A stretch of DNA of 64,000 bases, from assembly GCA_047600485.1 (NCBI GenBank), contig JASGKS010000001.1, forward strand, positions 6,912,259 through 6,976,258, written 5' to 3'. The notes beneath the pieces were generated by a model. That model made no database searches and was not told where the DNA came from. It saw only the letters and a list, made by a program, of their open reading frames with translations. How positions within the stretch are numbered: the stretch's first letter is position 1; every line of letters starts with the position of its first letter. Origin of the DNA: Archangium sp. (lineage in GTDB: Bacteria; Myxococcota; Myxococcia; Myxococcales; Myxococcaceae). Of this stretch, positions 3,792-60,148 are shown piece by piece. The position numbers and the translations under genes are program-made.

Positions 3792-3816
3792 CCTAGTGCG
3801 CTGAGTCCTACCCCGG

Positions 3817-3859
3817 CCCTCTCCCCGCTGTCGCAGGGAGAGGGTGCTGAGCGCTCAGC
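3817..3859. repeat. REP-like palindromic element (CCCTCTCCCC-N-GGGAGAGGG) plus second hairpin GCTGAGCGCTCAGC between convergent genes
   Basis: Two inverted repeats read directly from the sequence; same family as the copies at 4679, 18284, 30163 and 31139. Confidence 0.5.
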
Positions 3860-4676
3860 GGCGCTTGATCAACAGCACTGCGCCGAAGACTGCTCCGAGC
3901 GTGAGAATGATGGTCGCTCCGCTCGCGACGTTGAGGTGGTAGCTCGCGATGAGACCGATGACCGAGGTCACCACGCCGATGATCAACGCCCAGGCTGCGA
4001 CTCCCGAGAGCGTCTTGCCGAGCATGCGCGCGGTCGCCGCGGGAATGACGATGAAGCTCGAGACCAGCACCACGCCGACCGTCTTCACGCTGACCACGAT
4101 GATGAGCGCCGTGAGGCCGAGCAGCAGATAGTCGAGCGCCGCGACGGGAACTCCGGACAGCGCGGCGAGGTCGGGGTCGAACGTCGCGTACGCGAGGCGT
4201 GACCAGGTCGCGAGCAGCGCGACGAGCGTGATGAGCACCACCACCGCCACCATCCACATGTTCTGCGGAGAGATGGCGAGGATGCTGCCGAAGAGGACGG
4301 TTTCGACGTTCACCGGTTTGGCGTTCACCGAGCGCAGGCCGAGGAAGAGGACGCCGAGCGCGAAGCTGACGGAGAAGAAGACTCCGGTGGCGACGTCGCC
4401 GCGCAGCTTCCCGCGCCGCAGCACGTAGACGATGCCCATCGCCACCGCGAGCGTGAACGGGAGCGAGACCCAGCCGGCTTGATCGACGCTGACTCCGAGG
4501 AAGAGGCCGAGGCCCAGACCGCCGAAGGAAGCGTGCGCGAGGCCATCGCCGAGGAAGGACAGGCCTCGCTGCACGACGAAGACGCCGATGAGCGCGCAGA
4601 GGCCGGCGACGGCGGCTCCGGCGACGAGGGCGCGCTGCATGAACTCGAGTGCGAGGGGCTCGGTGAGGAAGTTCAT
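3855..4676 (-). CDS. znuB: Metal (Zn/Mn) ABC transporter permease
   Basis: Polytopic membrane protein with a TroC/ZnuB-like sequence (MNFLTEPLALEFMQRAL...); last gene of the SBP-ATPase-permease operon. Confidence 0.7.
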   Translation of the reverse strand: MNFLTEPLALEFMQRALVAGAAVAGLCALIGVFVVQRGLSFLGDGLAHASFGGLGLGLFLGVSVDQAGWVSLPFTLAVAMGIVYVLRRGKLRGDVATGVFFSVSFALGVLFLGLRSVNAKPVNVETVLFGSILAISPQNMWMVAVVVLITLVALLATWSRLAYATFDPDLAALSGVPVAALDYLLLGLTALIIVVSVKTVGVVLVSSFIVIPAATARMLGKTLSGVAAWALIIGVVTSVIGLIASYHLNVASGATIILTLGAVFGAVLLIKRR

Positions 4677-4678
4677 GT

Positions 4679-4718
4679 TTGACCCTCACCCCGACCCTCT
4701 CCCTCGCGGGAGAGGGGG
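4679..4718. repeat. REP-like palindromic element copy (GACCCTCACCCCGACCCTCTCCC-tcgc-GGGAGAGGG)
   Basis: Lies in the intergenic gap between the ATPase and permease genes. Confidence 0.5.
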
Positions 4719-9071: not shown

Positions 9072-10406
9072 GTGAGCGATCCACGAGAGACCATCGTCAC
9101 CGCCCAGAAGCAGCACGCGGAAGGCAAGACCCAAGACGCCTACCGAACCCTGCGCGGAGTCTTCTCCGGAGTCGGCGAATCACTGCGCGACGACGCGCTC
9201 TTCTTCGACGCGATCTCGTTGCTCGCCACCCTGAGCCACACCTTCGGCGCCACGAAAGTCTCCGCCGCGCTCAAGCAGTGCGTCGCCAAACGTGACGACA
9301 CGCAGATGCTCTACGACGCCGCGTACCAGCTCTACGAGGAGCAGCAGTTCGCGCCCGCCTCCGCACTGCTCTTCCGCGCGAACCGCCTCGCACCCGGCCA
9401 ACCAGGAATCATCGCCGAGCTCTCGAGCGCGCTCGAAGCCCAGCTCCGCTACGGCGAAGCAGCGCTGGTGCTCGAACAATCGAACACCGCCGAAACAGAA
9501 CCACTCTGCGCGTACCTCGCAGGCTTCAACTGGCTGATGACCGGCGACCTCGAGCGCGCGAGTTCGCACTTGAAGCGGCTCGCGACCGAGACCGACGAGC
9601 GCATGGTCTTTCAGCGCAACATGCTCGCCGGCATGGTGGCGCGAGCCGAAGCCATGCGCGCAGCCGGAATCTCCCTCGAAGGGCTCGCGCTCACCGCCTG
9701 GCAAGGAGCCATCAACGGCACCGTGCTCCTCCACGAATCACCGCACGGCTACGAGCAACCGATGCACGGCCGCTACGCCTTCGTCTCCGACAGCGCCGGG
9801 CTGCAGCGCGAAGGGCTCGAGCGATTGAAGGTGGTGTTGAGCGCGACGAACTCCGCTCCCGCGCGCATCGTGAGTGCTCCGGGCCGCGAGAGTCGACTGC
9901 TCGGCCTCGCAGCGGCGAAGACGCTCGGAGCGCCCGTCGCCGAGTGGACGCCCGGCTCCGAGAAAGGTGCCCTCGTCGTCGCGTGGACGCTGGAGAGCGT
10001 TCCCACCGACGAGCTGCTCAAGGCGTTGTCGACGCACGCTCCGGCGAACCGGCTGTTCGTGCACGCGTCGTCGTGGGTCGAACCGTTCGGCTACGCGCCC
10101 GACGTGACGACGCTGCTGCACCAGACCATCACGCACCCGTACGCGGGCGGTGCGCTGCGCGTCGACCCCGCGACGCAGAAGGTGACTCGCAGTGAACCCG
10201 ACACGCGCGCTGATGAGGTGCTGGTCGAGGAAATCGTCGCCGCGAAGATCTCGGACCCGAGCAAGACGTCGCTCGAACACGTCACCAGAGTGACTGGCGC
10301 GCTCAGGAGCGTCGACGCTTCGCATCGCGCTGGGCTGTTCGCCCAGAGCGGCCGTAGGCTTCGTCAGCGCGCTGGCGGCCCGGTGTTGAGCAATCGGTTT
10401 CTATGA
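9072..10406 (+). CDS. Hypothetical helical (TPR-like) protein
   Basis: Open frame with high GC3. Start uncertain (GTG 9072, after the palindrome). Stop overlaps the GH5 start (ATGA). Confidence 0.45.
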   Translation: MSDPRETIVTAQKQHAEGKTQDAYRTLRGVFSGVGESLRDDALFFDAISLLATLSHTFGATKVSAALKQCVAKRDDTQMLYDAAYQLYEEQQFAPASALLFRANRLAPGQPGIIAELSSALEAQLRYGEAALVLEQSNTAETEPLCAYLAGFNWLMTGDLERASSHLKRLATETDERMVFQRNMLAGMVARAEAMRAAGISLEGLALTAWQGAINGTVLLHESPHGYEQPMHGRYAFVSDSAGLQREGLERLKVVLSATNSAPARIVSAPGRESRLLGLAAAKTLGAPVAEWTPGSEKGALVVAWTLESVPTDELLKALSTHAPANRLFVHASSWVEPFGYAPDVTTLLHQTITHPYAGGALRVDPATQKVTRSEPDTRADEVLVEEIVAAKISDPSKTSLEHVTRVTGALRSVDASHRAGLFAQSGRRLRQRAGGPVLSNRFL

Positions 10407-11764
10407 ACGCGTTTGACCCTCACCCCAACCCTCTCTTGCTTCTGCTGCTGCTGGTGGCTTGCGTGCCGCCGAAGACCGAGCCACCTCCGGCGCGCACGTT
10501 CTCGGTGAGCAACGGCTTCATCCGCGACCCCGACGGACGCGCGGTGATTCTGCGCGGCGCGAACGTGAGCGGCCGCCACAAAGACCCGCCGTACTTCGAC
10601 TTCCACGAAACACCCGACTTCGAACGCATGCGCGACGAGTGGGGCATGAACTCGGTGCGCTTCCTCATCTCGTGGGCCGCGCTTGAGCCGACGCGCGATG
10701 CGTACGACGACGCGTACCTCGACGAAGTGGTGCGCAAGGTGAAGCTCGCGACCGACGCCGGGCTCCTCGTCTTCCTCGACATGCACCAGGACCTGTACGG
10801 AGTCGGTTTCCCCGGCGGAAACGGCATGCCGCGCTGGACCTGCGACGAGTCGAAGTACGCGAGCTACCGCCCGGGCACGACGTGGTTCTTCAACTACCTC
10901 TCCGCCGAAGTGACCGCGTGCTTCGACGGCTTCTGGGGCAGCCGCGACTTGCACGCGAAGTACGCCGCCGCCTGGAGCCACGTCGCGCAGCGCTTCGTCG
11001 ACGCACCACTCGTCATCGGCTTCGACCCGATGAACGAGCCGTACTGGGGCTCGTATCAACCCGACTTGCTCGAGCAGGGCCGCCTCGCGAGTCTGTATCG
11101 AGACGTCATCGCGGCGGTGCGCGTGCATCGACCCGACTGGCTCGCGTTTCTCGAGCCCGTCTCGAGCCGCAACATCGGCCTGCCCTCGAAGTTGCCGACC
11201 TTCAGCGAAGGCAACGTCGTCTACGCGCCACACTCCTACGACGGCACCGCAGAGCAGGGTATGGGCTTCGACCCGACCCGCCGCTCGGTGCTCATGGAAC
11301 AAATCGCGAAGATGCGCACCGAAGCCGACGCGCGCAACGCCGCGCTCGTGCTCGGCGAATACGGCGGCATGACCAACACGCCGGGCATCAGCGAATACAT
11401 GGACGCGGAGTACGACGCCGCGGGGCTCCAGCGCGCCGGCGCGATGTATTGGGATTACGGAAAGAACGACGGCTACGCGCTGCTCTCCGCCGATGGCACG
11501 CCGAAGGCCGACCTGCTGGCGATGGTCGCGCGCCCGTACCCCGCGCGCGTCGCGGGCGAACCCGGAGCGTGGGCAGTCGACGGCGACACGTTCACCTTCC
11601 GCTACGCGCCGAATTTCGCGCTCACCGTTCCCACCGTGATTCGCGTCCCAACGGGCACGTTCACCGCGACGTGTGACGGCTGCACGGTCGAAGCGAAGAG
11701 CGGAGCATTCGAGCTCACGCCGACGAGCGGCGTCACCGAAGTGCACTTCACGCTGACGCGCTGA
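10403..11764 (+). CDS. Glycoside hydrolase family 5 (endoglycanase/endoglycoceramidase-like) lipoprotein
   Basis: GH5 blocks NSVRFLISW, LVFLDMHQD and GFDPMNEP (catalytic NEP). Lipobox LLLVAC. Confidence 0.7.
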   Translation: MNAFDPHPNPLLLLLLLVACVPPKTEPPPARTFSVSNGFIRDPDGRAVILRGANVSGRHKDPPYFDFHETPDFERMRDEWGMNSVRFLISWAALEPTRDAYDDAYLDEVVRKVKLATDAGLLVFLDMHQDLYGVGFPGGNGMPRWTCDESKYASYRPGTTWFFNYLSAEVTACFDGFWGSRDLHAKYAAAWSHVAQRFVDAPLVIGFDPMNEPYWGSYQPDLLEQGRLASLYRDVIAAVRVHRPDWLAFLEPVSSRNIGLPSKLPTFSEGNVVYAPHSYDGTAEQGMGFDPTRRSVLMEQIAKMRTEADARNAALVLGEYGGMTNTPGISEYMDAEYDAAGLQRAGAMYWDYGKNDGYALLSADGTPKADLLAMVARPYPARVAGEPGAWAVDGDTFTFRYAPNFALTVPTVIRVPTGTFTATCDGCTVEAKSGAFELTPTSGVTEVHFTLTR

Positions 11765-18283: not shown

Positions 18284-18318
18284 CCCTCTCCCCGCAGGGG
18301 AGAGGGTTGGGGAGAGGG
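18284..18318. repeat. REP-like palindromic element copy (CCCTCTCCCCGCAGGGGAGAGGGTTGGGGAGAGGG)
   Basis: Lies 3' of the histidine-kinase gene. Confidence 0.5.
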
Positions 18319-22231: not shown

Positions 22232-22666
22232 ATGACCAAATACCTCGCGCACCTTCCCCGCCTCTTCCTGGGCCTCGTCTTCACCGTGTTCGGCATCGCA
22301 GGGTTGTTTCACCTGATGCCGCAGCCGCCGCTCCCCGAGGGCATCGCCGGCACGTACATCTCCGCGCTCGGCGGCACGTACCTCTTCACGCTGGTGAAGC
22401 TCACCGAGGTGGTGGCCGGCGTGCTGTTCCTCGCCAACCGCTTCAGCGCGCTCGCCGCGATTCTCATCGCGCCGGTGGTGGTGAACATCTTCGCGGCGCA
22501 CGCCTTCGTGCTGCCCGGCGGTCTGGGCCTGCCCATCGCGCTCGTCGCCGCGCTGGTCTTCGTGGCCTGGCAGCGTCGTGAGGCCTACCGCCCGCTGTTC
22601 GTCGCGAAGACGCAGACGGCTGCGGCGGCTTCCGAGCCGAGCGCCCGCACGCTCGCGGCGGCCTGA
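22232..22666 (+). CDS. DoxX-family membrane protein
   Basis: About 140 aa with four TM helices. First gene of the operon with the rSAM enzyme (21-bp gap). Confidence 0.65.
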   Translation: MTKYLAHLPRLFLGLVFTVFGIAGLFHLMPQPPLPEGIAGTYISALGGTYLFTLVKLTEVVAGVLFLANRFSALAAILIAPVVVNIFAAHAFVLPGGLGLPIALVAALVFVAWQRREAYRPLFVAKTQTAAAASEPSARTLAAA

Positions 22667-22687
22667 TTCGTCTACAGTGCGCGGCTC

Positions 22688-23989
22688 GTGACTGCGCCGC
22701 GCCACACGCTCCGACTCGAGGCTGATCGCGCGCTGCTCTACGACCGCGTCGCGCATCAGTACTTCCCGCTCAGCGCCGGCGAGGCGTTCCTCTGCACCGC
22801 CGCTGCCGAGGTCGGGCTCGACGAAGCGACGCGCCTGCTCGCGCAGAAAATCGGCGACGACGACGCGAACGACTTTCGCGCGCAGCTCGAAGACGACGGA
22901 GCGCTGAACGAAAACGGCTTCACCGGCCGGCTCCTCGAGCAGCGCGACATCAAGGGTGCGTACGCCGCTCCGCTGGTGTGCCACCTGGGCGTGACGCTGG
23001 CGTGCAACTTCGCGTGCAACCACTGCTACTCGTCGAGCGGCCAGCGCGCGAAAGACGAGCTCACGCTCGACGACATCAAGGGCCTCGTCGATCAGCTCGT
23101 CGACATCGGCTGCATGAAGCTGGTGCTCGGCGGCGGCGAACCGTTCCTCCGCAAGGAACTGGCCGACATCGTCGCGTACGCCGATTCGCGCGGAGTCGAC
23201 TGCTTCGTCCACACCAACGCCTCGCTGGTGCGCGCTGAAGTCCTCGAGCGCCTCGCGAAGACGCCGCCCGCCTCACTCGCCGTCAGCCTCGACGGCCCCG
23301 ACGCGCACACCAACGACCGCGTGCGCGGACCCAAAGCGTTCGAGAAGACGATGAAGGGCCTCGAGGTGCTGCGCGCCAATTGGCCGCACGGCTTCAACCT
23401 CTCGGTCACCATCACGCCCGAGAACGCCACGCTCACACCGCAGCTCGTCGCGCTCGCGAAGGAACAGGGCGCCAACGTGTTGCTGCTGCGACCCGCGTAC
23501 CCCGCCGGCGAAGCGATGAAGGACACCTCGCTCATCTGCGACCGCGAGACGTTCGCGCGCGCCATCGACCTCGCACGGCCCGAAGCGAAGAAGCTCGGCG
23601 TCACGCTCGACGCGCCGCACCCGCATGAGCAGGGCGAGCCCGACTTCGAAGGCTTCGGCTGCGTCGCGGCGCGCGTGGTGCTCGGTGTCGACCCGCGCGG
23701 CAACGTCACGCCGTGCCTCAATCTCCCGGGCGGCTTCGACAGCGGCAACATCAAGGAGAAGAAGCTGCAAGACCTCTGGAAGAAGGGTCGCGGCTTCGTG
23801 CTGCTGCGCGCGCAGGAAGCGGGTCCTCAGTGCAGCACCTGCAAGCACTACGAGACCTGTCGCGGCGGCTGCCGCGTGCGCGCCCTCTATTCCGAGAACG
23901 GTCTCGGTGGCCCCGACAGTTGGTGTCACTATGAGCCGCGCGAAGTTTCGAAGCAGACCCGCCGCACACGCACAGGAGCAACACGATGA
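22688..23989 (+). CDS. Radical SAM/SPASM-domain peptide-modifying enzyme with N-terminal PqqD-like RRE
   Basis: CNFACNHC (Cx3Cx2C); GGEPFL; twitch/SPASM Cys cluster (CLNLPGG...CSTCKHYETCRGGCRVRA...WCHYEP). N-terminal segment of about 95 aa is RRE-like (YFPLSAGEAFL...). Confidence 0.8.
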   Translation: MTAPRHTLRLEADRALLYDRVAHQYFPLSAGEAFLCTAAAEVGLDEATRLLAQKIGDDDANDFRAQLEDDGALNENGFTGRLLEQRDIKGAYAAPLVCHLGVTLACNFACNHCYSSSGQRAKDELTLDDIKGLVDQLVDIGCMKLVLGGGEPFLRKELADIVAYADSRGVDCFVHTNASLVRAEVLERLAKTPPASLAVSLDGPDAHTNDRVRGPKAFEKTMKGLEVLRANWPHGFNLSVTITPENATLTPQLVALAKEQGANVLLLRPAYPAGEAMKDTSLICDRETFARAIDLARPEAKKLGVTLDAPHPHEQGEPDFEGFGCVAARVVLGVDPRGNVTPCLNLPGGFDSGNIKEKKLQDLWKKGRGFVLLRAQEAGPQCSTCKHYETCRGGCRVRALYSENGLGGPDSWCHYEPREVSKQTRRTRTGATR

Positions 23990-24306
23990 CGGTTCGACGA
24001 ACGGGCACTCGCACGCCGGTGTCCAGTGGTTGTGGTTCTTCTTCGACGCGCGGAACTTCGAAGCCGTCGCCGCGCAAGCCGGTCGCCACGGGCTGCGGCA
24101 CCTCGTCGAGCTCGGGCAGCAAGGGCTGGTCGGCGAAGACCGGCGGCAAGGTGAGCGACAAGGTCAGCCAGCGCAGCAAGGACCTGCTCGACAAGGCCGA
24201 GGGCAAGACCGGGCGTCGCACCACGTCGAGCGGCTGCGGCACGTCGTCGCCGAGCAAGCCGTCGCCGCACAAGCCCACTCCGAAGCCGACGCGCACGGGG
24301 TGCTGA
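23986..24306 (+). CDS. Small basic Ser/Thr/Pro-rich peptide with repeated GCG(S/T)SS motifs (candidate rSAM substrate)
   Basis: ATGA overlap with the rSAM stop. High GC3 in this frame. SGCGSSS, TGCGTSSSS, SGCGTSSPS and a C-terminal TGC. No signal peptide. Confidence 0.5.
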   Translation: MTVRRTGTRTPVSSGCGSSSTRGTSKPSPRKPVATGCGTSSSSGSKGWSAKTGGKVSDKVSQRSKDLLDKAEGKTGRRTTSSGCGTSSPSKPSPHKPTPKPTRTGC

Positions 24307-24307
24307 G

Positions 24308-24613
24308 ATGAACCAGCACCGACTGTCCCGCTTGAAGCGATTGGCGACGGGCGCAGCGTTGATCAGCTCCACGCTCGCGCTCGGCGAAGACGTCAAGGCG
24401 CCGCCCGTGAACCCGGGCCCGCCGACTCGCATGAACTCACCGGGCAAGCAGAAGCCGGTGGCGGTCGACGCGGGCGTCGTCGATGCGGGCGTGACCGAAG
24501 AACCGGTGAAGCCCGATGACGGCCCGCACGTGAACAGCCCGCCGCCGCAGAAGCCCATTGCGAAGCCGCGGCCGCCGAACGTGAACTCGCCGCCTCAGCC
24601 GACCACGAAGTGA
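24308..24613 (+). CDS. Secreted Pro-rich peptide with three (R/H/N)(M/V)NSP..QKP repeats
   Basis: Starts 1 nt after the stop of the preceding peptide. Signal peptide ...ALISSTLALG. High GC3. Confidence 0.5.
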   Translation: MNQHRLSRLKRLATGAALISSTLALGEDVKAPPVNPGPPTRMNSPGKQKPVAVDAGVVDAGVTEEPVKPDDGPHVNSPPPQKPIAKPRPPNVNSPPQPTTK

Positions 24614-24663
24614 ATCGAAGCTGACGTCAGGCCGCGGGTGTCGGCGCTGTCCGACCCTGCGCC

Positions 24664-25281
24664 ATGTCACCGTCGCTCCCCGCTCTCCGCGCCGCCCTTC
24701 GTGCTCGGCCACGAGACGCGGCGTTGCGCGCGGTGTTCGCCGATTTTCTGCTCGAGCGTGGCGACCCCAGAGGCCTCTTCATTCAGGCGCAGCGCGAAGG
24801 ACGCGTCGAAGAAGCGCAGCGCCTGCTCGAGAAATACCGCGTCCACTTCGTTCACCCGTTGCCGCATGGCGCTGACGTGGACTTCGTCGATGGCTTCGTC
24901 GACGCGTGGCGCACGACGCCCGACGAATTTCGCCGCGCGGGCAGAAGGATGTTGCGACACCTGCCGCTGCGCTCGCTCACCTTGAGCGGAGTGCGCCAGG
25001 TCGACCTCCAATACCTGCTCGCCTCGGAAGGTCTGGAGTGCGTCACCACGCTCGTGCTCCACCAGCTGCGCATCGGCGCGCTGCAGTTGCTGGCGAGCAA
25101 CGACTTGCCGCACGTGCGCGTGCTGCAGGTCTCCGGCGCGCTGATGGAATCGCAGCTCGACGCGCTGCCCGACACCGACGTCGCGCGCCGGCTGCGCAGA
25201 GCCGCGACGCCACCGACCCGCGGCCGCCCGTTCTTCTGGATCGACGAGCGCTTCGAGTCACCGTTCGCGCAGTTGGGCTAG
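24664..25281 (+). CDS. TIGR02996-like repeat-companion/LRR protein (short paralog)
   Basis: LRAVFADFLLERGDPRGLFI motif near the N-terminus. Confidence 0.5.
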   Translation: MSPSLPALRAALRARPRDAALRAVFADFLLERGDPRGLFIQAQREGRVEEAQRLLEKYRVHFVHPLPHGADVDFVDGFVDAWRTTPDEFRRAGRRMLRHLPLRSLTLSGVRQVDLQYLLASEGLECVTTLVLHQLRIGALQLLASNDLPHVRVLQVSGALMESQLDALPDTDVARRLRRAATPPTRGRPFFWIDERFESPFAQLG

Positions 25282-25294
25282 ACCTCGCGCTCGC

Positions 25295-26164
25295 GTGACG
25301 AGCACCATCTTCAGCCGCACCGCCGTTCCCGATGGAGACACGCTCGGGCTCACGCGCGAACACGAGCTCGTCGCGCAGCCGCGCAAGGGCACCATCGACT
25401 GGGCGTCGTTCAATCGCTCACAGTTCGATGAAGCGAGCCTCGAGACCGCGCGCACGTTGTGGAGTCACCGCGCCTTCACCGAGTTCCACTCGCTCACGCA
25501 CTTCTCGCAGCTCAGCTCACAGCTGCATCTGCTCGGCGCGCCGCTCGACTGGAGCGGTGCCTTCGCGCGCATGGTGAGCGACGAGGTACGCCACACCGAG
25601 CTGTGTCTGCGAATGGTCGAAGCGCTCGGCGGCTCGCGAGACCTCACGCTTCCTTCGCTCGACGGCGTTCATCAGACCGTTCCGCAGGGCACGCTCCGCG
25701 CGCACGTGCGTCGCACCGTCATCAGCGCGTTCTGCATCGGCGAGACGCTCTCGGGGCGCATGTTCAAGCGCTGCCTCGCGGGCGCGAACGTGCCGCTGGC
25801 GCGCGACGTGGTGACCGCCATTCTCGTCGACGAGACGTTCCACTCCGAGCTGGGTTGGGAATTGGGCGCGCTCCTGATGCGGCCCGACGAGGCGGTCGCG
25901 ACGGAAGTCGCCGCGCTCGAAGCCGAGCTGCCGAAGCTGTTCGCTGATTTTGCGCAGCAGTGTCTGGCGACGAAGAGCGCGGCCTGGGCGCGCGCGCAAC
26001 CCGAGTTCGACGACGGTCCCAACTTCGGCACCATGAGCACCGCGGGCTACGCACACGCCTTCTACGAGGGCATGGAGCACGACGTGGTGCCGGGCCTGGA
26101 AGCCATCGGACTGGGTCACGCGCGCGCAGCGTGGGAGCAATTCATCGCCACGCGCCGCTATTGA
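25295..26164 (+). CDS. Ferritin-like (di-iron, two ExxH) domain protein
   Basis: DEVRHTELCLRM and DETFHSELGWELG suggest di-iron carboxylate ligands. Start uncertain. Confidence 0.5.
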   Translation: MTSTIFSRTAVPDGDTLGLTREHELVAQPRKGTIDWASFNRSQFDEASLETARTLWSHRAFTEFHSLTHFSQLSSQLHLLGAPLDWSGAFARMVSDEVRHTELCLRMVEALGGSRDLTLPSLDGVHQTVPQGTLRAHVRRTVISAFCIGETLSGRMFKRCLAGANVPLARDVVTAILVDETFHSELGWELGALLMRPDEAVATEVAALEAELPKLFADFAQQCLATKSAAWARAQPEFDDGPNFGTMSTAGYAHAFYEGMEHDVVPGLEAIGLGHARAAWEQFIATRRY

Positions 26165-30162: not shown

Positions 30163-30203
30163 TCCCTCTCCTTGCGAAGCGGGGAGAGGGTCGGGGTGAG
30201 GGG
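30163..30203. repeat. REP-like palindromic element copy (CCCTCTCC-ttgcgaagc-GGGGAGAGGG-TCGGGGTGAGGGG)
   Basis: Lies 3' of the GNAT-like gene. Confidence 0.5.
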
Positions 30204-30233
30204 CCGCAGCTGATCAGCTGACGCGTCAACGGT

Positions 30234-31100
30234 GTGGCAGGTGGCACTGGGCGTTGCCCGACGTCACCGTTGTTGATGCGCGTGATGCACGAGAGCGGCG
30301 TGGTGCGGGTGCGGCAGACCCGTCAGGGCGCGATGGCGTACCCGACCACCGACGCACACGTCGGTCGCTCACTCGATCTCTACGGGCAGTGGGCGCAGGC
30401 CGAGCTCGAGCTGTGCGGCCTGTTTCTCAAACCGGGCTCCATCGCCATCGACGTCGGCGCGAACCTCGGCACGCACGCGGTGTCGTTCGCACAGCGCGTC
30501 GGCCCGACCGGAGCGGTCATCGCCTTCGAGCCGCAGCGCCTCATGCACCAGCTGTTGTGCACCAACGCGACGCTCAACGGAGTCTCGTGGCTGCGCGCAG
30601 TGCACGGCGCGGTGGGTGCCGAAGCTGGAGCCATCACCGTGCCCGACGTCGACTACTCGTCGAGCGGAAACTTCGGAGGCCTCTCGCTCGCGGCTCCGGC
30701 GAACGGCGGTGACACCGTGCCCCTGTTCGCGCTCGACACGCTCGGGCTGCCGCGGTGTGCGTTGATCAAGATCGACGTCGAGGGAATGGAAGGCCAGGTG
30801 CTCGACGGCGCGCGCGCGCTCATCGCGTCGACGCGGCCGGCCATCTACTTCGAGCACAACGCGCCGAACGGAGCGCCCGACGTCATCGAGCGGCTGCTCC
30901 GTCACGAGTACGCGTGCTTCTGGCACTTCAGTCCGTTCTTCGACGCGAAGAACTTCGCGGGCGAAACGAAGGACGTGTTCGGCGGGCTCCTCGACGCGAA
31001 CGTCCTCGCAGTGCCACGCGCGATGGCCGGTGGACTCGAGACGGTGCTGCGGCCGGTGCTCAGCCCGCAGGACACCGCGCACCAAGCACTCGCACGCTGA
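30234..31100 (+). CDS. FkbM-family SAM-dependent methyltransferase
   Basis: IDVGANLGTHAV...AFEP...LIKIDVEGMEGQVLDGA. Start may be the internal M at 30276. Confidence 0.65.
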   Translation: MAGGTGRCPTSPLLMRVMHESGVVRVRQTRQGAMAYPTTDAHVGRSLDLYGQWAQAELELCGLFLKPGSIAIDVGANLGTHAVSFAQRVGPTGAVIAFEPQRLMHQLLCTNATLNGVSWLRAVHGAVGAEAGAITVPDVDYSSSGNFGGLSLAAPANGGDTVPLFALDTLGLPRCALIKIDVEGMEGQVLDGARALIASTRPAIYFEHNAPNGAPDVIERLLRHEYACFWHFSPFFDAKNFAGETKDVFGGLLDANVLAVPRAMAGGLETVLRPVLSPQDTAHQALAR

Positions 31101-31138
31101 TTCCGCGCGATGAAGAGGGTCGTGGTGAGAGGCGAGCT

Positions 31139-31174
31139 CCCCCTCTCCCGCGAGGGAGAGGGTCGGGGTGAGGG
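31139..31174. repeat. REP-like palindromic element copy (CCCCCTCTCCCGCGAGGGAGAGGGTCGGGGTGAGGG) between convergent genes
   Basis: A partial second copy lies upstream at 31112..31136. Confidence 0.5.
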
Positions 31175-36745: not shown

Positions 36746-36870
36746 GTGCGCATTGTCGTCAGAGGTGCGCTCCGGTTCATCGGCAGAGCGCGACAATCTG
36801 ATGTGCAAACCGCGACATCTCACGCATCGTGGCTCTGCACTCCGACTCACTCTCGAGGGTTTGGCACTCC

Positions 36871-39800
36871 ATGCGTTTCCAGTTCGCCGTCTTCCCGCTC
36901 GCGCTCGCGTTCGCGGTGTCGTTGTCCGCCTGTTCTCCCGCGTCGCAGAAGTGTTCGGCGTCCACCTGTCCCAACGGTTGCTGTGACGCTTCAGGCTCGT
37001 GTCAGGCCGGCTCGTCGGGCCTCGCGTGCGGCGCGGCCGGAGCGATGTGCACGCAATGCCAGCTCGGAGAAATCTGTACCTTCGGACAATGCAGCTCCAT
37101 CACCGGCAACGGCGGTGGCGGCGGCTCGAGCGGCGGCGGTGGCGGAACGGGTGGCGGCTCGACTGGCGGCGGAAGTGCGGGCGGCGGTAGCGCGATGGGC
37201 GGCGGCAGCGCGATGGGCGGCGGCAGCGCGATGGGCGGTGGCAGCGCGATGGGCGGTGGCGGCGGCTCGACTGGTGGCGGCGGCGGCTCGACCGGCGGCG
37301 GCGGCGGAATGCTCGACCCGTGCGCCGGCACGCTGACTCTGTGCGGCACGCGCTGTCTCGATCTCTCCGCTGACCCCGAGAACTGCGGCACCTGCGGCCG
37401 CGTGTGTGGCCAGGGCGAGGTGTGCAACCGCGGCTCGTGCAACGTGCTCCCCAACGACTGCACCATGCAGAGCAACGGCTGCGGCGCGGGCTACTACTGC
37501 GACCCCGTCAGCAAGCACTGCATGACCGGCTGCCGACTCACCACCGACTGCCCGATGGGAGCGACCTGCAGCATGGGCACCTGCTCGTGCGGCCCGGGCC
37601 AACACGCGTGCGGCCAGGAATGCGTGGCTGACGACGCCGCGACCTCGTGCGGCTCCCGCTGCGGAGCGTGCCCGCAACCTGCGCACTCCACCGCGACCTG
37701 CGTCGCCGCCTCGTGCGACTTCACGTGCGCCAGCGGCTACGTGCTCAACAGCGCCATGTGCGTCGACGTCGATGAGTGCGCCACCAACAACGGCGGCTGC
37801 AGCGCGAACGCGGCGTGCACGAACACCGACGGCTCCCGCACCTGCGCGTGCAACGCGGGCTTCACCGGCGACGGAGTGACCTGCACCGACATCAACGAGT
37901 GCGCGAGCAACAACGGCGGCTGCGACGTGAACGCGATGTGCACCAACACCCCGGGCTCGCGCACCTGCACCTGCGCCACCGGCTACACCGGCAACGGCAC
38001 CTCGTGCGTCGACATCGACGAGTGCGCAGCGGGCAACGGTGGCTGCGCGACGAACGCGACCTGCACCAACACTCCGGGCGCGCGCACCTGCGCGTGCAAC
38101 GCGGGCTTCACCGGCAACGGCCTCACGTGCACCGACGTGAACGAGTGCCTCACCAACAACGGCGGCTGCGCGGCGACCACCGCGGGCGGCGTGTGCACCA
38201 ACACTCCGGGCACGCGCACCTGCTCGTGCGCGACGGGCTTCACCGGCGACGGCTTCACCTGCACCGACGTGAACGAGTGCCTCACCAACAACGGCGGCTG
38301 CGCGGCGACCACCGCGGGCGGCGTGTGCACCAACACCGCCGGCTCGCGCACCTGCTCGTGCAACACCGGCTTCACGGGCAACGGCTTCACCTGCACCGAC
38401 ATCAACGAGTGCCTCACCAGCAACGGCGGCTGCGCGGCGACCACCGCGGGCGGCGTGTGCACCAACACCTCGGGCTCGCGCACCTGCTCGTGCAACACCG
38501 GCTTCACCGGCGACGGCTTCACCTGCACCGACGTGAACGAGTGCCTCACCAACAACGGCGGCTGCGCGGCGACGACTGCTGGTGGCGTGTGCACCAACAC
38601 CGTCGGCTCCCGCACTTGCTCATGCAACACCGGCTTCACGGGCAACGGCTTCACCTGCACCGACGTCAACGAGTGCCTCACCAACAACGGCGGCTGCGCG
38701 ACGACGGCGAACGGTGGCGTGTGCACCAACACCGTCGGCTCACGCACCTGCTCGTGCAACACCGGCTTCACCGGCGACGGCTTCACCTGCAGCGACGTCA
38801 ACGAGTGCCTCACCAACAACGGCGGCTGCGCGGCGACCACCAGCGGCGGCGTGTGCACCAACACGCCGGGCTCGCGAAACTGCACCTGCGCCTCGGGCTG
38901 GACGGGGAATGGACTGACCTGCACCGACGTCGACGAGTGCCTCACCAACAACGGCGGCTGCTCGGTGAACGCGACGTGCACCAACACGCCGGGCTCGCGG
39001 AGCTGCGCGTGCAACTCCGGCTACGCGGGCAACGGCATCACCTGCACGCCGAACGGAGACACCTGCGCGGCGCCGGTGACGTTGACGCTCAACACGCCGT
39101 TCTCCGGCTCGACGGTGGGCGCGGTGAACGACTACGCGACGGCGCTCTCGCAGCTGTGCGATGGCGCGACGCTGCCCGGCTCCGACACGGTGCACGTCTT
39201 CACGCCCGCGACGACCGGCTCATTCCGTCTCGGCATCACCGGCTTCGCGGGCATTCGCGTGTGGCTCGCCCCCACCTGTGGAGCGGCAGCGAGCTGCGCG
39301 GGTCTGGCGCCGGAATACAGCTCGAGCACCGCGCTCAACTTCCGCGGCACCGCGGGCGTGCCGGTGTTCATCGTCGTCGATTCAACGAGCAGCCCGGGCG
39401 CGTACACCTTGAACGTCACGTCCATCGCGACGGTGGCGAACGAGACGTGCGCCAACGCGGCACCGCTCACGCTCGGCACGCCGGTGACGGCTTCGCTCAG
39501 CAACGCCATCAACGACGTGACGCTCCTCGCGTCGTGCGCGAGCCCGCCGTACACGCAGCCTGAGCTCGTCTACAGCTTCACGCCGTCGAGCACCGGCAAC
39601 TACGTGCTGCGCGAGACGACCTCGGCCGACGTGGTGATGTGGGTCGGCACCGGCTGCACCGGCACCTGCGTGCTCGAGACCGATGAGCCGGAGTCGATGC
39701 AGGTCGCGCTCACCGCCGGCACGCAATACTTCTTCTTCGTCGAGCCCTACACGACGGCGACCTCGTTCACGATTTCGCTCGATCAAATCGTCACGCCGCC

Positions 39801-41286
39801 CAACGACACCTGCGCCGGAGCCGTCACCCTCCCCGTCTCGACCACCGTGAGCGCCACCACGCTCGGCGCGGCGAACGACTACGCGGGTCCGCTCTCGTCG
39901 GCGTGCTCGTCGATTGCGGTGCCGGGCAATGACGTCGTCTACACGTTCACGCCCGCGACGACCGGCTCGTACTTCGTGACGGTCACCACCAGCAACGGAG
40001 CGACCGACACCTGGGTCAGCACCACGTGCGGCGATTCGAATTCCTGCGTCGCGGTCGAGCCGGCCATCGGTTCCAACTTCGTGTTCCGCGGCACCGCGGG
40101 CGTTCCGGTGTTCCTCACGGTCGATGGAACGTCGGCTACGAGCCCGGCTGACTTCGGCATCTCGGTCGAGCCCATCACGCCGCCGGCGAACGACACGTGC
40201 GCGACTGCGCAGACCATCTCGGTCGGCATGCCCACCAGCGGCACCACCATCGGAGCGGCCGACGACCTCAACCCCGTCACCGCGTGCGGACCGACGCGGC
40301 GCGCGGCCGACGTGGTGTACAGCTTCACGCCTCCGACGACCGGCCCGTACGTGTTCCGCGAGACGACCTCGGCCGACGTGGTGATGTGGGCCTCGAGCGC
40401 GTGCGATGGAACGTGCAGCGGCTACACCGATGAGCCCGAAGAGCTCATCTTCAACGGCACCGCGGGCGTGCCGGTGTTGCTCTTCCTCGAGCCGTACTCG
40501 CAGCGCGCGGCGTTCACCGTCGAAGTGCTCGCGGGCACCGTGCCCACCAACGACACCTGCGCGGCGACGCAGGCGCTCACGCTCGGCACTCCGGCCAACG
40601 GCACCACGTCGTTCGCCAACAACGACTACTCCGGCACGCTCAACACCACGTGCGGCGGGCTGGCGGTGAACGGCCGCGACGTCGTGTTCTCGTTCACGCC
40701 GGCGTCGTCGGGCAACTTCAGCATCGTCACCACCACCACCGGTTGGTCGCCGACGGTCTGGGCCTCGACGGCGTGCGGCGCGACGGCGAGCTGCGTGTCG
40801 GCGCAGTCGAGCACGTTGACGCAGGTGGTGCGTGGCACGGCGGCGACTCCGTTCTTCGTCACCGTCGATGGCACCGACATGACGAACTCCGGCAGCTACA
40901 CGCTCACCGTGAACTCGGTCGTGGCGCCGGTGAACGACACGTGCGCGACGGCCACTCCGTTGACGAACGGCGTCTCGGTGAACTCCACCACCGTCGGCGC
41001 GGTGAACGACGTGCACCCGCTGCCTTCGTGCACCACCAGCACGCGGCGCAACGGAGAGGTGATGTTCAGCTTCGTGCCTCCCACCAGCGGCACGTGGTTC
41101 TTCCACGAGACGAGCGGCTCCGACGTGTTGATGTGGGTTGGCACGGTGTGCGACGGCTCGTGCCTCGCGTACGTCGATGACCCGGAAGACATCGGGCTCA
41201 CGCTGACCGCGGGCGTCACGTACTACCTCTTCGTCGAGCCGTACTCGACGCCGGGTCCCATCACCGTCATCGCGAGCCCGAATTGA
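36871..41286 (+). CDS. Giant lipoprotein: 8-Cys module, poly-Gly linker, 13 cbEGF-like repeats, 8 alternating PPC-like beta-domains
   Basis: Lipobox LALAFAVSLSAC. Repeats of the form D(V/I)(N/D)EC.(T/S)NNGGC...C.NT.GSR.C.C..G(F/Y)TG.G..C. Eight repeats of about 90 aa with NDTCA...DVVY.FTP.TTG.Y. Confidence 0.7.
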   Translation: MRFQFAVFPLALAFAVSLSACSPASQKCSASTCPNGCCDASGSCQAGSSGLACGAAGAMCTQCQLGEICTFGQCSSITGNGGGGGSSGGGGGTGGGSTGGGSAGGGSAMGGGSAMGGGSAMGGGSAMGGGGGSTGGGGGSTGGGGGMLDPCAGTLTLCGTRCLDLSADPENCGTCGRVCGQGEVCNRGSCNVLPNDCTMQSNGCGAGYYCDPVSKHCMTGCRLTTDCPMGATCSMGTCSCGPGQHACGQECVADDAATSCGSRCGACPQPAHSTATCVAASCDFTCASGYVLNSAMCVDVDECATNNGGCSANAACTNTDGSRTCACNAGFTGDGVTCTDINECASNNGGCDVNAMCTNTPGSRTCTCATGYTGNGTSCVDIDECAAGNGGCATNATCTNTPGARTCACNAGFTGNGLTCTDVNECLTNNGGCAATTAGGVCTNTPGTRTCSCATGFTGDGFTCTDVNECLTNNGGCAATTAGGVCTNTAGSRTCSCNTGFTGNGFTCTDINECLTSNGGCAATTAGGVCTNTSGSRTCSCNTGFTGDGFTCTDVNECLTNNGGCAATTAGGVCTNTVGSRTCSCNTGFTGNGFTCTDVNECLTNNGGCATTANGGVCTNTVGSRTCSCNTGFTGDGFTCSDVNECLTNNGGCAATTSGGVCTNTPGSRNCTCASGWTGNGLTCTDVDECLTNNGGCSVNATCTNTPGSRSCACNSGYAGNGITCTPNGDTCAAPVTLTLNTPFSGSTVGAVNDYATALSQLCDGATLPGSDTVHVFTPATTGSFRLGITGFAGIRVWLAPTCGAAASCAGLAPEYSSSTALNFRGTAGVPVFIVVDSTSSPGAYTLNVTSIATVANETCANAAPLTLGTPVTASLSNAINDVTLLASCASPPYTQPELVYSFTPSSTGNYVLRETTSADVVMWVGTGCTGTCVLETDEPESMQVALTAGTQYFFFVEPYTTATSFTISLDQIVTPPNDTCAGAVTLPVSTTVSATTLGAANDYAGPLSSACSSIAVPGNDVVYTFTPATTGSYFVTVTTSNGATDTWVSTTCGDSNSCVAVEPAIGSNFVFRGTAGVPVFLTVDGTSATSPADFGISVEPITPPANDTCATAQTISVGMPTSGTTIGAADDLNPVTACGPTRRAADVVYSFTPPTTGPYVFRETTSADVVMWASSACDGTCSGYTDEPEELIFNGTAGVPVLLFLEPYSQRAAFTVEVLAGTVPTNDTCAATQALTLGTPANGTTSFANNDYSGTLNTTCGGLAVNGRDVVFSFTPASSGNFSIVTTTTGWSPTVWASTACGATASCVSAQSSTLTQVVRGTAATPFFVTVDGTDMTNSGSYTLTVNSVVAPVNDTCATATPLTNGVSVNSTTVGAVNDVHPLPSCTTSTRRNGEVMFSFVPPTSGTWFFHETSGSDVLMWVGTVCDGSCLAYVDDPEDIGLTLTAGVTYYLFVEPYSTPGPITVIASPN
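37183..37254 (+). repeat. In-frame 18-bp tandem repeat x4 (GGCGGYAGCGCGATGGGC, encoding GGSAMG) inside the giant gene
   Basis: Four consecutive near-identical 18-mers. Confidence 0.8.
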
Positions 41287-58474: not shown

Positions 58475-60148
58475 TCAGCGGCGGCGCGACTTCTTCGCCA
58501 TCAACCACGGAGGCACCGGCGCGTCGTCGTTCTTGCGGCTGGTGCGCTTCTTCTTCGCGCTCGCGATGGCCTTCATCGGTTTCGCTTGCGCCGTCGCGAC
58601 AGACTCGGGAACCGCGAGCAACTCGGGCTCGTAGGTCGCTTCGGCTTCGGCGCGCGAAGACGTCGGCTGCTCGAACGCCACGCTCACCGTTTCAGTCTGC
58701 GCGTCGTCGAGCCACACCAGCGGCGGCTTCGGCGGAGCGGGAGGCGGCGCCAGCAATTCGGGCAACACCATCACGCCAGCGACTCCGGCGAGCCCCACCA
58801 CGAACGCGGCGAGCACCGGCCAGCGACGCTTCGGCGGCGGCACGTTCTTCTTGCGCTTGCGCGACGGAGCGACCGCCTCGAACAACTGCACGCGCGGCGG
58901 CGGCGCAGCCGTGACTCCCTCGCCCTGCAAGCGGGGAGAGGGGCCGAGTGCAGCAGAAGCGTCCGGCGTCGGCATCGGCGTCGGCGCACGCACCGGCATC
59001 GGGTCGAGCTTGGGCAGCTGCGCGCGCAGCGACTCCTCTTCCTTGCGGCGCGGCTCGAAGTGACGCGCGACGAACTGCGCGCGGAGTTCTTTTCGCCACG
59101 TGAACGCCGCCGCGGCCTCGCTCAACGCGAGCGCAAACTCACGGCCGTTGGCGTAGCGCTTCGAGCGGTCAGCGCTCAGCGCGCGGGAGATGACCTCGTC
59201 GAGCTGCGCGTTCACCGTGACGTTCAGGCGCGACGCGGGAATGAAGTGGCCCTCGCTCGCGAGCTTGAAGTGCTGGTCGAACGACTTCGCCTTGCGCACC
59301 TTCTCGCCGGTGAGGCACTCGTAGAGCACCGCGCCGAGCGAATACACGTCGGCCTTCGGGTCGGGCAGCCGACCTTCGAGCAATTGCTCCGGAGCGAAGA
59401 ACGCCGCCATCGCCTCACGCAATTCGAGCCACGAAGCGCCCTGCCCCATGCAGCGGAACAAGCCGGTGTCGTGCAACCGCGCCGAACCATCGAAGCCAAT
59501 CGCCACCGACTGGTCGCTCACCAGACCGTGCGCCGCGCCGTGCGAGTGCAATTCACCGAGCGCGCGCGCGACGTCGAGCACCGCACCGAGCGCGAGCCCG
59601 AGCGGCACCGACTGCCCGTTCTTCTTCATCGCGACGGTGAGCTCGGTGAGCGTCGCGCCGCTGGCGAGCTCGGTGACCCAGAACACACCTTCTTCACTCG
59701 TCTCGCAGGGGAACACCTGCACCAGCGCGGGGTGCGTGAAGTGGCCCGCCCACTCGGCGTGATTGCGAACGTCGCGCGCGAGCACCTCGGGCAGCTCGAG
59801 CCGGCGCATCACGACCAGCGCCGGCGTGACACCTTCTTCACGGCGCACCGCGAGCAGCGTCTTCGCTCCGCCGTCGGACAATCGACGCAGCACGGTGCAC
59901 GAGCCGAGCTCGAAACCCTCGAACGGGTCGGCCTTCGCTCCGTCACCGCGCAGCGTGAGGCGCGCGAGCGGCGACTTCGCTTCGGCGATGCGGCCGTGCT
60001 TCGGCAGCTCGGCGCGGTCCCAGGGCAGACCGATGCAGAACTCCTGGCCCGGGAGGAGGAAGGTCTGCGTCGGGATCCGGAGCTCGGTGGAGGTGCTCAA
60101 GGCGTGGAGCAGAGAGCAACGACAATGCCTGCTCCGCAAACGCTGCAA
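58475..60148 (-). CDS. Membrane-anchored Ser/Thr-kinase-like protein, predicted pseudokinase
   Basis: Kinase fold with VVMR in place of VAIK, HGLVSDQS in place of HRDLKPxN, and FDG in place of DFG. APE is retained. One TM segment plus a periplasmic tail. Start uncertain. Confidence 0.55.
   Translation of the reverse strand: MQRLRSRHCRCSLLHALSTSTELRIPTQTFLLPGQEFCIGLPWDRAELPKHGRIAEAKSPLARLTLRGDGAKADPFEGFELGSCTVLRRLSDGGAKTLLAVRREEGVTPALVVMRRLELPEVLARDVRNHAEWAGHFTHPALVQVFPCETSEEGVFWVTELASGATLTELTVAMKKNGQSVPLGLALGAVLDVARALGELHSHGAAHGLVSDQSVAIGFDGSARLHDTGLFRCMGQGASWLELREAMAAFFAPEQLLEGRLPDPKADVYSLGAVLYECLTGEKVRKAKSFDQHFKLASEGHFIPASRLNVTVNAQLDEVISRALSADRSKRYANGREFALALSEAAAAFTWRKELRAQFVARHFEPRRKEEESLRAQLPKLDPMPVRAPTPMPTPDASAALGPSPRLQGEGVTAAPPPRVQLFEAVAPSRKRKKNVPPPKRRWPVLAAFVVGLAGVAGVMVLPELLAPPPAPPKPPLVWLDDAQTETVSVAFEQPTSSRAEAEATYEPELLAVPESVATAQAKPMKAIASAKKKRTSRKNDDAPVPPWLMAKKSRRR

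Follow-up and report, generated by a model that had tools for sequence, protein, structure and literature searches.

What are the short palindromic repeats that stand behind the genes of this myxobacterial stretch, and by what means did they come to stand there? The stretch comprises 64 kb (64,000 nucleotides (nt), G+C 66.8 %) of contig JASGKS010000001.1, assembly GCA_047600485.1, a metagenome-assembled genome (MAG) labelled Archangium sp., and is called the window in its whole length. A sequence-only reading had described the repeats as REP-like elements acting as terminators or mRNA stabilisers. By their sequence pattern they are members of the known BoxC / PIT / TMECO / HPGQ (triplex motif) family, and the best explanation, to which we assign somewhat better than even chances, is that the window copies are solo BoxC/PIT/TMECO repeats and non-autonomous members of a system linked to the DUF559 protein family. 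At least one copy was inserted in this lineage specifically, the repeat is spread over several phyla and over viral contigs, and elsewhere it forms the inverted ends of DUF559 gene cassettes. The comparison with described repeat families which that reading had called for leaves no myxobacterial novelty, the element being the already described one.

Earlier descriptions of the BoxC/PIT element are reportedly due to Bergler 1992 and to Hoyne & Maher 2000. BoxC and PIT are its earlier names (as given in PMC4666352) and HPGQ is a later one (Kaplan et al. 2016, PMC5100583). In Escherichia coli the triplex motif TMECO reads CCCTCNCCC-N3-6-GGGNGAGGG-N3-GGGNGAGGG (Holder et al. 2015, PMC4666352), and Table 1 of the same paper includes copies with GGGAGAGGGTCGGGGTGAGGG, the same as in the window. 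Three window copies fit this pattern exactly, one fits with a single mismatch and a 9-nt loop, and one with a 1-nt deletion in block 3. Each copy (~34-40 nt) opens with a C-rich block, which a loop separates from its G-rich complement; after a 3-nt spacer comes another G-rich block, the mirror image of the first. The two-block pattern CCCTCTCCC-N3-12-GGGAGAGGG has four exact matches in the window versus none in 100 dinucleotide-preserving shuffles, and a scan with the three-block pattern CCCTCNCCC-N3-9-GGGNGAGGG-N3-GGGNGAGGG gave three exact matches versus none by chance. Five of the seven motif-like sequences lie between genes (P <= 0.005 even with a generous non-coding fraction of 20 %). The interspersed family of intergenic palindromes proposed from the letters was thus recovered, and each position given for it carries the sequence given.

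The same element is on record from other genomes. The 100 palindromes CCCTCTCCCXX(X)GGGAGAGGG of Enterobacter sp. 638, guessed to be terminators (PMC2869309), are by their pattern the same element as BoxC/TMECO. In E. coli MG1655 the 23 TMECO copies are always intergenic and show no strand bias (PMC4666352); on the published coordinates, with the E. coli positions of oriC and terminus, 13 G strands are leading and 10 lagging, which is no clear replication-strand bias. The window copies resemble BoxC/PIT/TMECO in the sequence pattern including GGGAGAGGGTCGGGGTGAGGG, the three blocks, the intergenic position, the absence of strand bias, the multiple copies and even in the placement of one copy inside an ABC-transporter operon (pstB-pstA in E. 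coli; znuC-znuB in the window). They differ in their host, a Myxococcota MAG, in a higher local density, and in that the window lacks inverted A/B pairs (none within 300 nt of each other among its copies), though a relative with 87 % identical ZnuB has them; most E. coli copies are also solo. The 2015 survey counted one copy in Myxococcus xanthus and a maximum of 143 per genome, in one Enterobacter (PMC4666352). With 5 copies per 64 kb, or ~78 per Mb, the window lies above any genome of that survey. The 143-copy genome has ~30 per Mb.

The clearest trace of mobility is copy 2 (Table 1), which separates znuC from znuB by a gap of 51 nt. In relatives with 87, 84 and 72 % identical ZnuB, the first two being Myxococcota MAGs and the third Sandaracinus, this gap measures 3, -1 and 4 nt; their junctions read TGAGCGATG, TGATG or a 4-nt gap, and what the window has in excess is copy 2 and a few bases. 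Because all three relatives have a near-zero gap, parsimony makes copy 2 a probable gain of the window lineage, inserted inside the operon. Copies 2 and 5 are identical across 37 nt, the loop included, which indicates that the window repeats were probably copied recently. The 87 % relative carries five copies in 20.8 kb at other sites, two inverted pairs among them, and an inverted pair of the same repeat follows 2 nt after its znuB stop; the other relatives held no copy in 88 kb. Filled and empty znuC-znuB sites are too diverged for boundaries to be placed, with a possible CATG on both sides at this one site only. In the empty-site comparison for copies 4 and 5, the three closest homologues of the FkbM methyltransferase (~70-72 % identical) lie in unrelated neighbourhoods with no conserved neighbours.

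Beyond the relatives, a scan of one genome per species found the repeat in at least 120 stretches of species-representative genomes, distributed over Pseudomonadota, Myxococcota, Desulfobacterota, Planctomycetota, Verrucomicrobiota, Chloroflexota, Acidobacteriota, Nitrospirota, Cyanobacteriota and others, with one Bifidobacterium MAG among them. At least 120 further stretches lie on IMG/VR contigs classed as viral, two of which also bear repeat-flanked DUF559 genes; some may represent prophage regions bordered by host DNA, and Holder et al. report no phage association in E. coli (PMC4666352). In 155 cross-genome copies block 1 is CCCTCTCCC in 125, block 2 is GGGAGAGGG in 143 and block 3 is GGGTGAGGG in 123, positions that the pattern formally leaves free being conserved as well. 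The flanks are not conserved past ~3 nt (< 0.8 bit, reading (G/T)(C/T)(T/C)). Adjacent copies in these repeat-selected loci are mostly inverted (59 inverted versus 12 not, n=71).

Between more distant repeat pairs we found open reading frames (ORFs) of the DUF559 family (Pfam E = 1e-32 and 1e-33), and 2.18 Mb of loci selected for the repeat yielded seven DUF559 matches, every one at 1-170 nt from a copy. For the reverse test, 80 metagenomic loci were chosen only by their DUF559 relative with a profile from a four-sequence alignment (48-90 % identity, 67 clusters at 90 %), and 72 of them have a copy within 250 nt. An upstream copy is present at 63 of 74 evaluable loci, the nearest being sense-oriented in 57 of the 63, and a downstream copy at 61 of 76, the nearest being antisense in 59 of the 61; copies stand on both sides of the gene at 52 of the 80 loci. 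Run on 88 kb of control loci and on shuffled sequence amounting to 195 kb, the same detector found no copies. All eight DUF559 genes inspected on finished replicons are flanked by such repeats. The ends of the unit on Sinorhizobium meliloti pSymB are inverted repeats of ~126 nt, each a '-,+' doublet with a 50-nt spacer, and in Azospirillum covarying repeat variants lie beside the DUF559 gene. Deinococcus and Picosynechococcus have lineage-specific sequences of the same C-block / G-block / mirror-G-block architecture beside DUF559, the flanks in Picosynechococcus PCC 7002 pAQ6 and Deinococcus proteolyticus pDEIPR03 reading CCCCC-loop-GGGGG-TCA-GGGGG and CCCCTCCCCCC-TTGC-GGGGGAGG-CT-GGGAGGGGGG; this may bring the G/C-rich triplex motifs reported from cyanobacteria into the pairing as well.

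This pairing led us to a wider proposal, which in our estimate has an even chance of being right: DUF559 proteins (YcjD family, Vsr-like PD-(D/E)XK) would be the missing partner enzymes of intrastrand-triplex repeats (BoxC/PIT/TM and lineage variants, TM standing for one triplex-motif copy), with TM-DUF559-TM as the autonomous unit and a fold recognised in single-stranded DNA. In such a mechanism, G-rich single-stranded DNA would form a hairpin and take up the third block in a purine-motif triplex, and the DUF559 nuclease would recognise that fold. TM-DUF559-TM would be the autonomous or 'master' unit, and solo copies and inverted doublets its non-autonomous offspring, spread and maintained in trans, much as REP/REPIN elements are by RAYT. 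The window copies would then be passengers in intergenic DNA where insertions are tolerated, and local effects such as an RNA hairpin at 3' ends or a GAGGG Shine-Dalgarno-like sequence before znuB would be by-products, not dedicated terminators. For the organism of the window we infer the DUF559 partnership from these other genomes. No literature link of DUF559 or ycjD to these repeats was found, in a search of incomplete coverage.

A Variovorax MAG (JANOCL010000198.1, 1290-1800) has a whole repeat-DUF559-repeat unit of ~163 codons inside metG. It occupies the linker that joins the catalytic core to the C-terminal tRNA-binding domain and keeps the reading frame, which is uninterrupted over 720 codons. 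The two repeats translate as PSPASAGEGRGEG and PSPPPSPAEAGEG, and the unit is absent from all 120 closest MetRS homologues (~680 amino acids). One could also see the repeats as targets and not as ends, a homing-type DUF559 gene inserting into pre-existing inverted pairs while the repeats spread otherwise. The DUF559 profile matches one solved structure, 3hrl, and the fold group that the family shares with Vsr and the group I intron homing endonuclease I-Bth0305I (PMC3424549) would suit such a gene, as would the frequency of gene-less inverted pairs (59 of 71 adjacent pairs). In Variovorax metG, however, repeats and gene are jointly absent from every one of the homologues, lineage-specific repeat variants accompany their own DUF559 genes, and repeat numbers in E. 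coli track the presence of ycjD, so that we consider insertion into ready-made pairs rather improbable.

The last of these points concerns E. coli. In K-12, ycjD (b1289) is annotated as a DUF559 domain-containing protein; the end of its coding sequence includes block 1 of a degenerate copy, and TMECO no. 9 follows at a distance of 167 nt. The gene is present in single copy in 3378 of 5426 complete E. coli genomes. Using a composite query (ycjD and both repeat types) on an evenly spaced sample of 60 records, we counted 12-36 repeat places (median 23) in 37 ycjD-positive records versus 1-25 (median 3) in 21 ycjD-negative chromosomes (Mann-Whitney P = 1e-8, uncorrected for phylogeny). Table S1 of Holder et al. 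likewise contains strains with 13-30 copies and strains with 1-2 copies (PMC4666352). These counts agree with the presence of ycjD per phylogroup. The strains with 13-30 copies belong to phylogroups A/B1/C and those with 1-2 copies to B2. ycjD itself is reported from phylogroups A, B1 and C, with eefRABCD in its place in B2 lineages (PMC12817139). As a separate observation at this locus (NC_000913.3, 1351240-1351410), the final 42 nt of ycjD occur a second time ~70 nt downstream, in the space that separates the gene from TMECO no. 9, which suggests a past rearrangement at the repeat-bounded gene end.

What does selection maintain in the repeat? When 360 distinct copies were aligned, each in its best register, a change between C-G and T-A in the pairing of blocks 1 and 2 was found to be accompanied by a change of the mirror position in block 3 to A (or T) or G. 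Such coordinated changes between C-G*G and T-A*A affect triad positions 1, 2, 3, 6 and 9, in different genomes. Fourteen of the 16 changes at positions 1, 2, 3 and 9 are in mirror register with A or T, which is triplex-compatible, and one is in direct register. A scan of the viral contigs in which the positions were left free paired A at block-2 position 4 with A at block-3 position 6 in 103 of 105 cases, and G with G in 27 of 30. An independent set of 150 copies from the protein-selected loci gave 49 of 52 in mirror and none of 52 in direct register. Since the copies may not be counted as independent events, it is the involvement of at least five different positions that carries the argument. 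The three blocks co-evolve in mirror register, as an intramolecular purine-motif triplex requires. Since templated copying or conversion gives only direct or inverted repeats, mirror-register change points to selection on a symmetric structure of the Hoogsteen type. At block-3 position 4, 264 copies have T, 72 have A and 11 have G, and the excess of T over A therefore speaks for the purine motif on the G strand rather than a pyrimidine motif on the C strand. The selected property would thus probably be a G-rich single strand that folds into a hairpin with the third block, an intramolecular purine-motif triplex; the isolated G strand of E. coli TMECO does form a stable triplex by circular dichroism (CD) and nuclear magnetic resonance (NMR) (PMC4666352).

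Two other readings compete for the same evidence. Under the name HPGQ the element has been viewed as a switch between a hairpin and a G-quadruplex (G4), GGG-AGA-GGG-TCG-GGGG-TGA-GGG, that regulates its neighbours; canonical copies indeed fit G3+N1-7 x4, and CD in K+ is compatible with a G4 (PMC5100583). By NMR, 18 imino signals were assigned to the triplex, not to a G4 (PMC4666352). Natural variants such as AGGAGAGGG...GGGAGAGGA and GGGAGAAGG...GGATGAGGG interrupt the G3 tracts yet keep the triads, so that the G4 does not look like what is conserved. Moreover, the bases that would form G4 loops are conserved and co-varying, and the genes neighbouring the repeats share no function, all of which makes the switch highly improbable. 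The other reading is a host-level DNA element without a dedicated enzyme, kept for replication stalling, for recombination and local variability (Holder et al.) or for binding of nucleoid proteins. The triplex covariation fits any role that requires the fold, and TMECO loci vary more among E. coli strains than control intergenic regions (PMC4666352); such variability would be expected near a mobile element as well, however. The stereotyped TM(+)-DUF559-TM(-) architecture in 72 of 80 loci, the insertion of a whole unit into metG, the identical copies and the patchy spread across phyla are left unexplained by such a host role, which we consider unlikely.

Several observations weigh against a DUF559-driven, triplex-recognising system. 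In the window, and in ~150 kb of related myxobacterial loci, no DUF559 gene was detected by tblastn and six-frame profile search. Neither the exact ends of the element nor a target-site duplication could be made out. The action of DUF559 as a nuclease on these repeats is putative, and the 80 protein-selected loci were seeded from a repeat-associated protein and thus sample one DUF559 clade. The two inverted configurations are nearly equal in number (31 and 28), and only one of them is a simple internal deletion, though the S. meliloti unit does end in '-,+' doublets. The contrast in E. coli follows phylogroups and so represents few independent events, and some ycjD-negative strains retain 11-25 copies. 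Finally, in vivo dimethyl sulfate (DMS) footprinting in E. coli did not detect the triplex, and duplex DNA gave no triplex signal (PMC4666352); the footprinting was done on DNA that was in bulk duplex.

Among known systems, REP/REPIN-RAYT is similar in organisation. Like the BoxC/TM repeats, its repeats are short, GC-rich intergenic palindromes in tens to hundreds of copies, often as inverted doublets, with a single-copy gene lying in inverted repeats and repeat numbers that follow this gene. The label "REP-like" given to the window repeats is apt in so far as they are short, rich in GC, able to form hairpins, intergenic and multi-copy, and seem to have a dedicated nuclease gene as partner. 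Membership in REP/REPIN-RAYT was considered and rejected: neither the window repeats nor the cross-genome ones have the GTAG/CGTC tag, and the flanked gene is DUF559, not a Y1 transposase. BoxC/TM differs further in its third, mirror-symmetric block, in a PD-(D/E)XK (Vsr-like) enzyme in place of an HUH/Y1 transposase, and in that one sequence is common to several phyla whereas REPs are species-specific. With miniature inverted-repeat transposable elements (MITEs) the repeats share that short, non-autonomous elements match the inverted ends of a gene-carrying unit and that short-spacer doublets resemble internal deletions; they differ in lacking a definable target-site duplication, in a putative enzyme outside the known transposase families and in solo ends being the commonest form. 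Homing endonuclease genes and the IS200-IS605 insertion sequences also have a small nuclease gene bounded by structured DNA and an apparent dependence on the fold of one strand, and the in-frame survival in the essential metG is a further likeness. The DUF559 units are without the intron or intein context of the former and the HUH transposase of the latter.

The repeats of the window are ordinary as a kind and new in their host and their high density; they should be annotated as BoxC/triplex-motif repeats, not as terminators. For the family as a whole the analysis has a larger bearing, as BoxC has been described since 1992 and its origin, function and means of spread had stayed obscure for thirty years. 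The near-constant flanking names a concrete candidate enzyme, and its E. coli K-12 version, the uncharacterised ycjD, can be tested at the bench. Mirror covariation supplies comparative evidence for a selected, triplex-compatible fold, where the published in vitro structure had no in vivo support. If the proposal is true, it would explain the ten-fold differences in repeat number between E. coli phylogroups, would constitute a second REP/RAYT-like system that is based on PD-(D/E)XK and mechanistically unrelated, and would be the first case of natural covariation pointing to a DNA triplex as a selected structure.

Do the repeats end transcripts all the same? Their coordinates and neighbours are collected in Table 1; gene calls in the window combine G+C at third codon positions (GC3) with Pfam, and statements on orientation use Pfam-supported window genes and the published E. 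coli tables.

Table 1. Copies and remnants of the BoxC/triplex-motif repeat in the 64-kb window
Feature	Position	Strand	Form and sequence	Flanking or host gene
Copy 1	3807..3844	-	9-12 bp hairpin and decayed third block; CCCTCTCCC TGCGACAGCG GGGAGAGGG CCG GGGTAGGA	convergent: polysaccharide-deacetylase gene (stop 3791) / znuB (stop 3855)
Copy 2	4679..4718	-	full three-block copy; CCCCCTCTCCC GCGA GGGAGAGGG TCG GGGTGAGGG TCAA	same strand, within znuACB operon: znuC (stop 4728) / znuB (ATG 4676)
Copy 3	18284..18318	+	full; third block GGGAGAGGG	both on minus strand: hybrid histidine kinase (stop 18321) / DUF2330 gene (start 18254)
Copy 4	30163..30203	+	full; 12-bp extended stem, single stem mismatch; pattern match at 30164-30202 with one mismatch and 9-nt loop	same strand: 9 nt past stop of GNAT-like gene (30154) / ~30 nt ahead of FkbM methyltransferase gene
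Copy 5	31139..31174	+	full canonical copy	convergent: FkbM methyltransferase gene (stop 31100) / GGDEF gene (stop 31186)
Fragment	10415..10435	-	blocks 2 and 3 only; GAGAGGG TTG GGGTGAGGG TC	within first 11 codons of GH5 lipoprotein ORF; codes for residues 5-11, DPHPNPL
Degenerate hairpin-only remnant	58917..58942	.	CCCTCGCCC TGCAAGCG GGGAGAGGG	in frame in Ser/Thr kinase gene 58475-60148(-), past kinase domain; codes for PSPRLQGEG

The inventory thus comprises four full copies, a fifth whose third block is decayed, a fragment of two blocks and a remnant reduced to the hairpin. It retains the sites of the earlier tally of five full copies and one partial, adds the remnant, the weakest family member by its fold z-score of -0.5, and alters the status of copy 1. 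This copy had been delimited as a hairpin from 3817 to 3844; its minus strand continues into CCG-GGGTAGGA, a third block one base short, and so extends it to ~3807-3844. The partial copy at the start of the GH5 gene proved real. Convergent genes enclose two copies (3807-3844 and 31139-31174), not three as had been stated; the remaining three stand between same-strand genes. All five copies are intergenic, with the G strand on + in three and on - in two, which is no strand bias. That they follow stop codons was borne out for all five, at 2-38 nt, copy 2 lying in addition inside the operon, 2-6 nt ahead of the znuB ATG.

This placement is an argument for Rho-independent terminators or 3'-end mRNA stabilisers, in which an RNA hairpin would halt RNA polymerase or keep 3' exonucleases out. 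The predicted hairpins are strong (-24 to -26 kcal/mol as RNA, -10.6 to -14 kcal/mol as DNA, the third block staying unpaired), the same role had been suggested for the 100 Enterobacter sp. 638 copies (PMC2869309), and the elements are rare between divergent genes in E. coli (PMC5100583, Table 1). As in intrinsic terminators, a GC-rich stem of 9-12 bp follows the stop codons of the window genes. Unlike in these, no copy's sequence has a T-run (U-tract in the RNA), and a terminator scan was silent at copies 4 and 5. The copies occur in both orientations, with the G-rich strand as sense strand for some of the neighbouring genes and as antisense strand for the rest; at copy 3 the C-rich strand is the transcribed one, because both flanking genes lie on the minus strand. 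One copy sits within the znuC-znuB junction, and a hairpin-only role explains neither the conserved third block nor its mirror covariation. In E. coli, PIT elements were without promoter or terminator activity (as reported in PMC4666352), and the position behind stop codons is equally expected from purifying selection against insertions into genes and promoters. We accordingly give a dedicated terminator or stabiliser function little probability, and the claim made for the window is not supported; such a role would be at most a side effect, a passive influence of the RNA hairpin on 3' ends being possible.

Rfam at gathering thresholds matched no family in the window, which contains no tRNA genes, and no transposase was found among the window genes scanned. 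Further details concern individual copies. The third block of copy 2 (minus strand; 4677-4683, 4683-4691) ends in GGGTGAGGGTCAAACATG and there offers a Shine-Dalgarno-like GAGGG ~9 nt before the znuB start, so that the insertion may now supply the ribosome-binding site of znuB. A perfect 14-nt palindrome, GCTGAGCGCTCAGC (3846-3859), adjoins copy 1 and overlaps the znuB stop codon. The FkbM methyltransferase gene and znuB are each bracketed by two copies in direct orientation (regions 30164-31174 and 3807-4718), the upstream copy lying 2-31 nt before the start codon. The ORF of the GH5 lipoprotein (10403-10435 region) starts ATGA-coupled to the gene upstream, and repeat DNA appears to have been taken into the N-region of its signal peptide at residues 5-11.

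A few other features were noted. The genus label of the source MAG is doubtful, the nearest named ZnuB relatives of this Archangium sp. being from Sandaracinus amylolyticus (72 %) and Polyangium (68 %). Behind a radical SAM/SPASM enzyme (22688-23989) come several small ORFs that matched nothing in Pfam, and the region 22232-26164 (+) may be a peptide-modification cluster. A 1485-amino-acid ORF (36829-41286, +) encodes about ten calcium-binding EGF/cEGF repeats and a galactose-binding-like domain associated with the type IX secretion system (T9SS); its G+C at second codon positions of 0.65 resembled that of a shadow ORF, and Pfam supports a real gene (E = 2e-71).

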